Part shown: positions 20,038 through 26,654 of the stretch, piece by piece
Layout of the letters: each line of letters starts with the position of its first letter
How positions within the stretch are numbered: position 1 is the first letter of the stretch
IMG/VR virus record: IMGVR_UViG_2574180160_000007
Length of the DNA: 34,744 nt
Source of the DNA: a virus
Taxonomy: Duplodnaviria > Heunggongvirae > Uroviricota > Caudoviricetes
Reading direction: 5' to 3' (one strand)
The notes under the pieces: generated by a model
What the model was told of the DNA's origin: nothing
The model's database searches: none
What the model saw: the letters and a program-made list of their open reading frames with translations, nothing else
Translations under genes and position numbers: made by a program

Positions 20038-21419
20038 TTTCCGCCTCCTGCATCCCGCCCACGTTTTGCAGCCAGGGTCCAGGCTGATGAATGAGCTTCT
20101 CCGGGTTTATCTTCGGTCATACTGTTGCAGTGCCACAGCGAGCCCCCCCACGTCACCGTATCGCCGGGGTGGTAGGTTTCACCGGCTCTGAACACACCGC
20201 GGTAGAGCATCACCGGCAGGGAAAATGTTTTTTCCGTACGCTGGCCACTGCTCTGCCGGACCACCACAGAGAACAACCGCTCACCCGTCATGCTGACGTC
20301 AATATCCGCCACCCCGTCAACCAGGCATTCCCATCCCCGCATCCCGTGCGTTTTTTCATACGCCCGCCAGAGTCCGCCCTGGTGTGTGGCATACGTGCCC
20401 CGGGGAAAGGATTTTTGATCGTCAATGGCGGGGAGTATTTCCAGAGCCGTGGCATCACGCCCGTCCTGCGGAGCCGGCAGGGCACTCACCGCATCCAGAA
20501 CCGCCTTCTGCAGAACATCCGGATCGTAGTCACGACCATCACGCGGAACATGAATATGGCTTACCGCCTCCTTCACCATCTGTTCAAGCATCGGACGCAC
20601 ATCATCCGGGGTGAGACTTTTACCGTCTGCCGGCTGCGGAATATTTGCGACCGCATCATTCACCGCCTTCTGCAGAACATCGGGATCATAGTCACGACCG
20701 TCGCGCGGAACAGGGATATGGCTTACAGCCTCCTTCACCATCTGTTCAAGCATCGGACGCACATCATCCGGGGTGAGACTTTTACCGTCCGCCGGCTGCG
20801 GAATATTTGCGACCGCATCATTCACCGCCTTCTGCAGTACTTCCGGATCGTAGTCACGACCATCACGCGGAACAGGGATATGGCTTACAGCCTCCTTCAC
20901 CATCTGTTCAAGCATCGGACGCACATCATCCGGGGTGAGACTTTTACCGTCCGCCGGCTGCGGAATATTTGCGACCGCATCATTCACCGCCTTCTGCAGT
21001 ACTTCCGGATCGTAGTCACGACCATCACGCGGAACAGGGATATGGCTTACAGCCTCCTTCACCATCTGTTCAAGCATCGGACGCACATCATCCGGGGTGA
21101 GACTTTTACCGTCCGCCGGCTGCGGAATATTTGCGACCGCATCATTCACCGCCTGCTGCAGTACATCCGGATCATAATCACGACCATCACGCGGTACCGG
21201 AATGGCCCCCACAGCGTCATCCACCATCGCCTGCAGAACCGGACGCACCTCATCCACCGTCACATGCTTCTGTAATACCGCCGACAGGGAAGTCAGTTTC
21301 TCTTCAAACGCTTGTGCCTGCGAGGCCATCTTCCCCTCAAATGTGCGCTGTAAATCCGCCAGCACTGTGGAGAATTCTTCTCCCAGTGCACGAATAATGG
21401 ACAGTTCCCGTTCCGTCAT
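20034..21419 (-). CDS. Hypothetical head-module protein with N-terminal coiled coil, about 5 tandem 54-aa repeats and a Trp/Cys-containing C-terminal domain
   Basis: 461-aa ORF translationally coupled to portal (upstream) and connector (downstream); repeat unit PVPRDGRDYDPEVLQKAVNDAVANIPQPADGKSLTPDDVRPMLEQMVKEAVSHI. Confidence 0.6.
   Translation of the reverse strand: MTERELSIIRALGEEFSTVLADLQRTFEGKMASQAQAFEEKLTSLSAVLQKHVTVDEVRPVLQAMVDDAVGAIPVPRDGRDYDPDVLQQAVNDAVANIPQPADGKSLTPDDVRPMLEQMVKEAVSHIPVPRDGRDYDPEVLQKAVNDAVANIPQPADGKSLTPDDVRPMLEQMVKEAVSHIPVPRDGRDYDPEVLQKAVNDAVANIPQPADGKSLTPDDVRPMLEQMVKEAVSHIPVPRDGRDYDPDVLQKAVNDAVANIPQPADGKSLTPDDVRPMLEQMVKEAVSHIHVPRDGRDYDPDVLQKAVLDAVSALPAPQDGRDATALEILPAIDDQKSFPRGTYATHQGGLWRAYEKTHGMRGWECLVDGVADIDVSMTGERLFSVVVRQSSGQRTEKTFSLPVMLYRGVFRAGETYHPGDTVTWGGSLWHCNSMTEDKPGEAHSSAWTLAAKRGRDAGGGK
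20440..21270. repeat. Tandem array of 162-bp repeats (about 4 full plus 2 partial units) inside the 461-aa ORF
   Basis: Unit TTCACCATCTGTTCAAGCATCGGACGCACATCATCCGGGGTGAGACTTTTACCGTC... recurs head-to-tail with only a few substitutions. Confidence 0.8.
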
Positions 21420-24992: not shown

Positions 24993-26654
24993 TTATATGA
25001 AAAAAACCGCATATTCTTTCTTTTTCGGTTCCGGGTTAAGGGACATCAGGGAGACCGCATTGAACAGCGCCATCAGCGGGTCAATTTTTCCCCGTCCACT
25101 GGCCTGTTTGGTGATAAGAATGGCGTTACCTTTAGGCTCCACCCGGGCATTGCCGACACACCAGGCCATCAGGGGCTGGTCACCATGCACCAGCACCCCT
25201 TCAGCCAGTTTGCGCTCGGTGGTTTTAATGGCCCCGCCCAGTTTCCAGCCCTGGCTTATCCCCACCACAATTCCGTCGGGGATCCCGGCTTCCGCCAGTG
25301 AATCCAGAATCTGCCCCACCCCTGACGGGTCAATACCGATATGGTCCAGTAACTCAGCCTCATGAATGCGACGCACATATTCCGCCACTTCCGCCGTGTC
25401 ATCCCCGACACGCCGGACAATGGTCATATCTCCACAGGCAACAAGATCCTGAAACCGGGACGCCTCGCTCTTCCGTCGGACCACCGCGGTTTCATGCGCC
25501 CAGGCATGGCCCCAGCCCAGCCATTCGCGGGTCTCCCGGTCACGCCCAATCACATACATCCCCAGCAGATCATCCAGCCCTCCGCCGTCAATCCCCACCG
25601 TCACCACATCAGCACGACGCAGGATATCGTCCAGGCTGATACAACGGCCCTGCTCTTCCCAGAAATCAGCCCCCGCCCAGCGGTCAGAGCGCAGGGCAAG
25701 ACCAATTTCCACATTGGCGTGTTTTGACATGAACCCCCGGAATGTCTCTTCACCGGCTTCCCGGGCTTTACGGTACTCCCGGTACAGAAAGGCCTCATCC
25801 ACTGAATAGCCGAGATTCGGATTGACCATGGCGAGGTTTTCCATCAGCAGGTTAGCCCCGCTTTCCACCATTTCAGGAGGGTGTTCAAATATCACCGGCA
25901 GAAAGTGCGGATCATGAATTTTGCCGTCGCGCACATCCCGGGCGTACTGCAGTTTCTGTCTGAACACCCCGGCGGGCGGTTCATTCGACTGGGTGGTCGT
26001 ATACACCACAAACCCTTCCGGGCGGGAGGCAAGGCCGCCTATGGCTTCACGTAACATGTCCTCCGCCTTGCACTGCTTGCCAAACAGCCACAACTCATCA
26101 ATCAGCGTACCCACGGACTTGATACCGGACACCGTATTCGGATCGGCTGCCACCACCTTCAGGGTGGTGTCCGTCACTCGGTGGGTGATGGTCCGGATAT
26201 GGGTCTGTACCTGGCAGAGGTCATCCAGATCATCGTCACGTCGTACCATATCCCGGGCAGGGTTGAAGGCGTTGGCCGCCACCTCCACAGTCGGGGCCAG
26301 AATCGTGTAACCCGCCGCCTGCCGCCAGTTCAGTAACAGTGCAGTCATCATGATCCCCGCGGCCAGCGTGGACTTCGAGTTTTTCTTGGGGATAAGGATA
26401 AAAACTTCCTTGATATGGCGTACACCGGTCTGCGCATCGTAGGAGCCAAACAGGGCCGCCACCAGGTCAAACACCCACGGTGCACAGGACTCCCCGAACG
26501 TAGGGCTACCAGGTGCATCCACAATCCGCAGTTGTTTAAAAATCGCCAGGGCATGTGCGGCCTCGTCCGGATAAATCGGATCCGGAATAATCGACAGCCC
26601 CTTTTTCAGGCGCTCTGCCCAGTCCGGGCAGGCTGTGCTCCATACAGGTATCAT
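24993..26654 (-). CDS. Terminase large subunit (TerL)
   Basis: 553 aa; N-terminal ATPase region and C-terminal nuclease-like ..VVTVGIDGGGLDDLLGMYVIGRD..; ATGA overlap with the TerS stop. Confidence 0.85.
   Translation of the reverse strand: MIPVWSTACPDWAERLKKGLSIIPDPIYPDEAAHALAIFKQLRIVDAPGSPTFGESCAPWVFDLVAALFGSYDAQTGVRHIKEVFILIPKKNSKSTLAAGIMMTALLLNWRQAAGYTILAPTVEVAANAFNPARDMVRRDDDLDDLCQVQTHIRTITHRVTDTTLKVVAADPNTVSGIKSVGTLIDELWLFGKQCKAEDMLREAIGGLASRPEGFVVYTTTQSNEPPAGVFRQKLQYARDVRDGKIHDPHFLPVIFEHPPEMVESGANLLMENLAMVNPNLGYSVDEAFLYREYRKAREAGEETFRGFMSKHANVEIGLALRSDRWAGADFWEEQGRCISLDDILRRADVVTVGIDGGGLDDLLGMYVIGRDRETREWLGWGHAWAHETAVVRRKSEASRFQDLVACGDMTIVRRVGDDTAEVAEYVRRIHEAELLDHIGIDPSGVGQILDSLAEAGIPDGIVVGISQGWKLGGAIKTTERKLAEGVLVHGDQPLMAWCVGNARVEPKGNAILITKQASGRGKIDPLMALFNAVSLMSLNPEPKKKEYAVFFI

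Follow-up and report, generated by a model that had tools for sequence, protein, structure and literature searches.

In the textbook order of HK97-type head genes, the small terminase subunit (TerS) is followed by the large subunit (TerL), the portal, the protease and the capsid protein. Genes that encode the prohead protease and the major capsid protein as one polypeptide are described as "common in small-genome siphoviruses" (PMC9671004) and have been noted for the Rhodobacter RcC phages (bioRxiv 10.1101/2021.08.04.455094). The passage on phage PAJU2 in PMC8306868, citing Uchiyama 2009, presents a capsid polyprotein with a proposed autocatalytic cleavage. An NCBIfam model, NF045541, carries the name "prohead protease/major capsid protein fusion protein", and GenBank records of Shiga toxin (Stx) phages contain a gene named "major head protein/prohead protease". 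Here we describe the head module of the IMG/VR virus record IMGVR_UViG_2574180160_000007, a stretch of 34,744 nucleotides referred to below as the window, in which a 645-amino-acid (aa) protease/delta-domain/capsid fusion is encoded between TerL and the portal.

Judging from its sequence, this block is very probably the intact head-assembly and DNA-packaging module of a lambdoid Escherichia coli prophage of the BP-4795/2851 (long-tailed Stx phage) type, and its gene order the inherited layout of a large HK97-like lineage of Proteobacteria rather than the outcome of a local rearrangement or an assembly error. All module genes and the features described with them are located on the minus strand, and the genes are present at the coordinates given here in the list of open reading frames (ORFs) of the window. 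In the order of transcription, they encode an HNH endonuclease, TerS, TerL, the 645-aa fusion, a 73-aa protein, the portal, a 461-aa repeat protein, the adaptor Ad1, a head closure protein and gp10-like proteins. The first-pass annotation, made from the letters alone, had proposed the order TerL, fusion, portal for positions 21416–26654, and profile searches back every one of these assignments. TerL (553 aa, 24993–26654) matches Pfam TerL_ATPase and TerL_nuclease, both above the cut-off, and phrog_9 (E = 3e-145). The fusion gene occupies positions 22992–24929. The 454-aa protein encoded at 21416–22780 is an HK97-family portal, with matches to Phage_portal (PF04860, E = 4e-81, 273 bits) and TIGR01537 (351 bits; cut-off 112). 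The portal gene is thus found downstream of the capsid gene and not at its canonical place between TerL and the protease.

The module is well represented in databases. The 7.8-kb block matches 95 phage records, and in 91 of these the match takes in 80% or more of the block. It is 95–99% identical in nucleotide sequence, at 100% coverage, to the Stx-converting phages BP-4795, 2851, YYZ-2008 and Stx2-1717, among others; high collinear identity to the BP-4795/2851-type module, at 95.5–97.5%, therefore extends over the entire block. Among 5,426 complete E. coli genomes, 1,240 have a single place that accounts for 80% or more of the query, at up to 99.8% identity. The RefSeq gene tables of BP-4795 and of one E. 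coli chromosome agree with the window in gene content and gene order, the 73-aa ORF included. The head-module architecture is old, widespread and already annotated, and the novelty implied by the first-pass annotation is not supported, given the long-standing GenBank and RefSeq annotation and the published accounts of PAJU2 and of similar fusions cited above.

The fusion gene starts with GTG, which is preceded by AGGAGG. Its product combines prohead protease, delta-domain and capsid parts, as had been proposed, and phrog_617 spans it end to end (E = 1e-261). The protease domain (approximately residues 1–165, 24435–24929, boundary approximate) is recognised by Peptidase_S78 (PF04586) on residues 48–152 with 34.7 bits (cut-off 21) and by phrog_80 (E = 2e-41); it is beta-rich in the AlphaFold model, with a predicted local distance difference test (pLDDT) score of 60–76. 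A set of 23 diverse homologues at 41–71% identity shows no variation at H55, S110 and E135, and the motif context suggests that H55 and S110 would be the counterparts of the catalytic residues of HK97 gp4. A PDB sequence search with the protease-domain profile gave no matches. Residues 140–193 make up a variable linker, predicted to be disordered. The delta (scaffolding) domain follows at approximately residues 193–285 (24075–24353, boundary approximate), where the model contains two long helices (195–222 and 229–262, pLDDT 77–79) that form a helical hairpin, as is expected of a delta domain. A helical N-terminal segment of about 100 residues accordingly precedes the capsid domain, and unfused homologues, which start at residue 193, include it. 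The model was built from a shallow alignment of 27 sequences at no less than 73% identity and was used for the delta helices alone. The mature HK97-family capsid domain is placed at about residues 286–645 (22995–24074, with a putative N-terminal boundary). It is supported by Phage_capsid (PF05065) on residues 386–635 with 53.1 bits (cut-off 24.2) and by the HK97-family capsid profile TIGR01554, which exceeds its cut-off of 27.5 with 78.1 bits on residues 204–584, an alignment that starts within the delta region. The PDB sequence search with the fusion returned a single weak capsid match, the major capsid protein 9d9w (E = 0.0017), and no significant match to the HK97 capsid itself.

The protease-capsid fusion is a large family, as far as sequence searches define it. 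More than 2,494 homologues were found; among the matches listed, almost all are about 645 aa long and nearly all contain both domains. The 90% cluster of the fusion comprises 9,916 member sequences of the same length. A HMMER search of the full library gave 12,577 cluster representatives at E ≤ 1e-3, a count that includes unfused capsid proteins, and the best 150 matches (38–54% identity) are mostly full-length fusions of about 640–680 aa, with a few unfused capsid proteins. Some longer database proteins of about 780–1,090 aa (P0001, P0174, P0183 and P0004) have the fusion joined to TerL-like or portal-like sequence or to an N-terminal extension of about 440 residues; P0001 contains TerL_ATPase and P0004 Phage_portal. 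These joined proteins are probably artefacts of gene calling or assembly. The window protein scores 54 bits against NF045541, below its cut-off of 525.

In order to compare gene orders, 80 loci were taken from species-representative genomes in a search seeded with an alignment of eight sequences, at 41–77% identity, and TerL, portal and other genes were located in them with phmmer. The loci span alpha-, beta- and gammaproteobacteria (Enterobacterales, Pseudomonas, Xanthomonadales, Burkholderiales, Rhizobiales, Rhodobacterales, Sphingomonadales and a few metagenome-assembled genomes). The portal lies downstream of the protease/capsid gene or genes in every locus where both were detected, TerL lies upstream wherever it was detected, and none of the 80 loci has the portal between TerL and the protease. 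The same order is found in a Serratia prophage at 75% amino-acid identity and in two isolated phages, PAJU2 (fused) and Burkholderia phage vB_SBP39 (separate genes). Of the loci, 64 have the protease fused to the capsid protein and 13 have the two as separate adjacent ORFs, with the order unchanged. When L113, L134–L138, L140–L142, L145–L148 and L150 were compared with the remaining loci, the fused and separate states were scattered over the capsid tree, with at least 11 changes by parsimony on a rough neighbour-joining tree of the capsid part. Separate forms often differ from fused ones by a mere stop codon overlapping the capsid start (ATGA or GTGA).

The first-pass annotation had left the choice between a distinct head-module architecture and a rearrangement, and the synteny comparison supports the former. 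That the place of the protease-capsid gene, after TerL and ahead of the portal, is peculiar to this genome and due to a recent rearrangement or an assembly artefact is an idea prompted by the departure from the textbook order, and no result of the analysis favours it. The identical junctions recur in the 91 phage records and the 1,240 complete E. coli genomes, which removes the concern about misassembly; the order is lineage-wide, being the same in every informative locus and in the isolated phages; and no break in composition is seen across positions 21–27 kb. We regard this explanation as having a negligible probability. Scarcely more credible is a degenerate, non-functional fusion in a defective prophage, created by the loss of a stop codon. 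Many E. coli prophages are defective, and the RefSeq annotation pipeline PGAP calls the neighbouring portal/461-aa pair "frameshifted". However, the same gene, at 98.9–99.7% amino-acid identity, is present in BP-4795 and 2851, deposited as complete phage genomes; the 90% cluster holds its thousands of members at the same length; the candidate catalytic residues are invariant; and the ORFs neighbouring the fusion gene are all intact.

The junction between the two parts of the fusion has features of a translation start. An in-frame ATG encodes Met193 (24351–24353), and a Shine-Dalgarno-like AAGGA (24364–24368) is located 10 nt upstream of it. Unfused capsid homologues start exactly at the position of residue 193. 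In the 13 separate-gene loci, too, the capsid gene begins at the homologous residue, often with an ATGA or GTGA overlap with the protease stop codon. At the Met193 column, 54 of the 64 fused genes have ATG or GTG with AAGGA, AGGAG or GGAGG 5–10 nt upstream; the background for such a motif in the same genes is 6.4% at all codon positions and 7.9% at other in-frame ATG or GTG codons. Within the frame of the longer ORF, a ribosome-binding site and a start codon are thus both conserved, as expected of a nested gene, and the linker that surrounds the start codon is otherwise variable. In PAJU2, the junction reads AGGAGG, 8 nt, ATG. Among Enterobacterales, the residues encoded over the motif vary (KE, KG, KD, QG, TG) while the nucleotides AAGGA or AGGA are kept, and therefore selection on RNA rather than on protein is indicated.

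Because the start codon and the Shine-Dalgarno motif are conserved at the junction, we propose, with a moderate preference, that the protease-capsid "fusion" genes of this lineage are nested genes with two products, a free delta-capsid protein of 453 aa and a minor protease-tethered polyprotein. If so, the repeated gain and loss of the stop codon between protease and capsid without consequence would be explained. The 645-aa polyprotein would enter the procapsid through its capsid part and bring the protease inside, and most shell subunits would probably be made separately as the 453-aa protein, from the conserved ribosome-binding site and the ATG at codon 193. The internal start would then set a low protease-to-capsid ratio, by analogy with lambda C/Nu3 and herpesvirus UL26/UL26.5. 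After assembly, the putative Ser/His protease (S110, H55) would cleave off both the delta scaffolds and its own domain, and about 360 residues would remain as the mature capsid protein. No description of an internal start in protease-capsid fusions was found in the searchable literature, which is itself incomplete and gives weak evidence of absence; the conserved internal start may be the one new idea in this analysis.

A different account, which we find possible though doubtful, accepts the fusion as real and has all capsid subunits made as a self-cutting 645-aa polyprotein, with the Shine-Dalgarno motif and ATG at codon 193 an inert relic of a former capsid start. It agrees with the capsid polyprotein and autocatalytic cleavage attributed to PAJU2 in the cited passage, and with the strong AGGAGG site of the full-length start. 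A relic, however, would be expected to decay within a highly variable linker, whereas start and motif persist at the right spacing in 54 of 64 divergent genes against a background of about 8%, and the nucleotide motif is kept while the encoded residues change. Repeated switching between fused and separate states would also be easiest if capsid translation were independent of the upstream frame.

Several points weigh against our own interpretation, the two-product proposal included. In the GC-rich alphaproteobacteria, a conserved K-E-G peptide would encode AAGGAGG by preferred codons, so the conservation of the motif could in part be at the amino-acid level, as the single-product account would have it. 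At the protein level, we infer the two products and the cleavage sites from sequence. The protease scores 46.5 bits against TIGR01543, the HK97 proheadase equivalog, where the cut-off is 59, and is thus related to that protease but not its equivalog by the NCBI threshold. The AlphaFold model of the fusion is poor, with a mean pLDDT of 42 and a capsid part below 50, and a Foldseek search of PDB with this low-confidence model gave no match at E ≤ 0.001, the top one being the human cytomegalovirus protease (E = 0.055). Finally, the order claim is limited to one lineage, because the 80 loci were picked by similarity to the capsid protein of the window; "conserved" here means conserved within that lineage and not in all HK97-like phages.

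Downstream of the fusion gene, the capsid-portal gap measures 211 bp, as first reported. A 9-bp GC-rich hairpin, ACGGGAGGC-GTGC-GCCTCCCGT (22956–22977), predicted with RNAfold, lies 15 nt beyond the stop codon of the capsid gene. Of the related loci, 60% have a perfect stem of 7 bp or more no farther than 60 nt from the capsid stop; the figure is 3% for random windows and 12% for the regions after TerL. In the first 60 nt after the stop (loci L003 and L069–L148), the hairpin is conserved in position but not in sequence, and many have a T-run after it. Such a structure may act as a partial terminator or as an mRNA-stabilising 3′ element; in the mechanism proposed above, it may raise capsid mRNA above the level for the low-copy portal genes that follow.

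The possible 73-aa ORF of the gap (22726–22947) is, on comparative grounds, a real conserved gene: it matches phrog_829 (E = 4e-39) and is annotated in RefSeq. It is not confined to the gap as had been thought, since it runs over the annotated portal start with its final 55 nt. An iterative hidden Markov model of the family collected 67 ORFs; those listed are all on the plus strand and adjoin the 3′ end of the capsid gene, and none was found elsewhere in the loci. These lineage-wide small proteins are encoded right after the capsid gene, usually with the ORF ending at the portal start (e.g., L142:9024-9338, L099:8901-9239 and L140:9135-9404), and share an N-terminal motif of about 38 residues; distant relatives show weak similarity to DUF7210, below the cut-off. 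The C-termini have lysine/arginine-rich tails or, by eye, Rho_N/HeH-like motifs, with one weak Rho_N match (E = 0.19), and these features hint at nucleic-acid binding. An identity with lambda gpW, suggested by the position before the portal alone, was rejected, since the 73-aa protein has no Pfam match and only the weak DUF7210 similarity appears in distant relatives.

The portal gene is followed by an ORF for a 461-aa protein (20034–21419), and the portal stop and the start of this ORF overlap as ATGA (21416–21419). RefSeq/PGAP merges the two into a single portal pseudogene, marked "frameshifted", and the profile phrog_2271, 859 positions long, likewise extends over both; the loci listed for this junction are L002 and L082:9184-12915. 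With four A's, the junction AGAAAATGA keeps two ORFs and is present in 63 viral contigs, and the five-A in-frame version is present in 2. Across other loci, the two genes overlap by 1, 4, 8, 14 or 17 nt or are separated by a gap, with an inconsistent frame relation. The 63 contigs against 2, together with these inconsistent overlaps, led us to reject a programmed frameshift from the portal into the 461-aa ORF. Because the overlap lengths differ among lineages, the pair looks like two translationally coupled genes rather than a pseudogene or a product of frameshifting. A natural fusion of portal and post-portal proteins, 1,243 aa long, was seen in Candidatus Pantoea communis.

In the gene for the 461-aa protein, Tandem Repeats Finder detected a 162-bp (54-aa) unit repeated 4.3 times in tandem at 96% identity (20500–21194); the protein also has a conserved C-terminal domain. 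The copy number varies among relatives, and in most of the 80 loci the portal is followed by a homologue of this protein. The conserved core of the post-portal protein is formed by the C-terminal 90 or so residues, in which CBM_5_12 matches, all sub-threshold, were obtained for the window protein and for three of the six divergent homologues tested. When the 461-aa protein was searched against PDB, the matches were designed helical repeats and noise only, with no solved relative.

The remaining genes of the module are conventional. TerS (187 aa, 26651–27214) matches Pfam Terminase_2 with 36 bits (cut-off 26.1) and phrog_641 (E = 8e-68). An HNH endonuclease gene (27505–27870; Pfam HNH, E = 3.7e-8; phrog_589) is located just upstream of TerS and TerL, and the order HNH, TerS, TerL recurs in many related loci. 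The next gene after the 461-aa ORF encodes the gp6-like head-tail adaptor Ad1 (19711–20037; Pfam Phage_connect_1; phrog_40, E = 1e-30). A consensus scan also detected a putative terminator-like hairpin at 24951–24968, with a 7-pair stem and then a T-run (TTTTATTTTC); the whole element (24941–24968) lies between the TerL stop codon and the ribosome-binding site of the fusion gene. It is located within what is expected to be one late operon and is presumably read through by antiterminated polymerase.

The module re-described here already carries annotations in named Stx phages and in E. coli genomes by the thousand, and the observation as filed matters little; it serves mainly to caution that the textbook HK97 order does not hold universally. 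What the junction and the other module features add is of modest use to phage annotation and to assembly biology. Present annotation, by gene callers and by PGAP, gives the fusion a single product and reads the portal and post-portal genes as a frameshifted pseudogene; comparison among relatives suggests, for the former, an internal start and, for the latter, two coupled genes. The nested start, if true, would offer these phages a simple way to set the ratio of protease to capsid protein.

Of the known systems, phages BP-4795 (Marienburgvirus), 2851, YYZ-2008 and Stx2-1717 are nearest to the window, sharing the collinear block, the gene table and the label "putative major head protein/prohead protease"; they differ in point substitutions and in the copy number of the 162-bp post-portal repeat, so that matches come in two pieces. 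The "prohead protease fused capsid protein" ORF003 of PAJU2 (UniProt P85500 as cited in PMC8306868) is 48% identical to the window fusion over its full length. PAJU2 also resembles the window in the order terminase, fusion, small ORFs, portal, post-portal gene, in its internal AGGAGG-ATG and in a hairpin after the fusion gene; unlike the window, it infects Pseudomonas, belongs to the genus Detrevirus and has two small ORFs between capsid and portal instead of one. Fusions of the NF045541 type and those of small siphoviruses (PMC9671004; bioRxiv 10.1101/2021.08.04.455094) likewise carry protease and capsid in one polypeptide, and the NF045541-type fusions belong to another sequence lineage. HK97 has the same families (Peptidase_S78, an HK97 capsid with an N-terminal delta scaffold and an HK97 portal) and presumably shares the maturation logic, but its gp4 protease and gp5 capsid are separate genes after the portal, whereas in the window they are fused and ahead of it.

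For the proposed nested start, the closest parallels are other nested protease/scaffold genes. The lambda C/Nu3 pair follows this logic, with a small share of protease co-incorporated during assembly. A small amount of protease is likewise co-incorporated from herpesvirus protease-scaffold genes (PMC11565193). Both lambda C/Nu3 and UL26/UL26.5 resemble the model for the window in having a long protease product and a shorter, more abundant one with a common frame and C-terminus. They differ in that the shared part is a separate scaffold protein, while in the window it would be the capsid protein with its built-in delta domain and the two-product state is deduced from the genes; the herpesvirus short form, unlike that of the model, also comes from a separate transcript. 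If the nested start is true, it would extend the herpesvirus and lambda logic of a tethered protease with excess free scaffold to phages that carry the scaffold inside the capsid protein.

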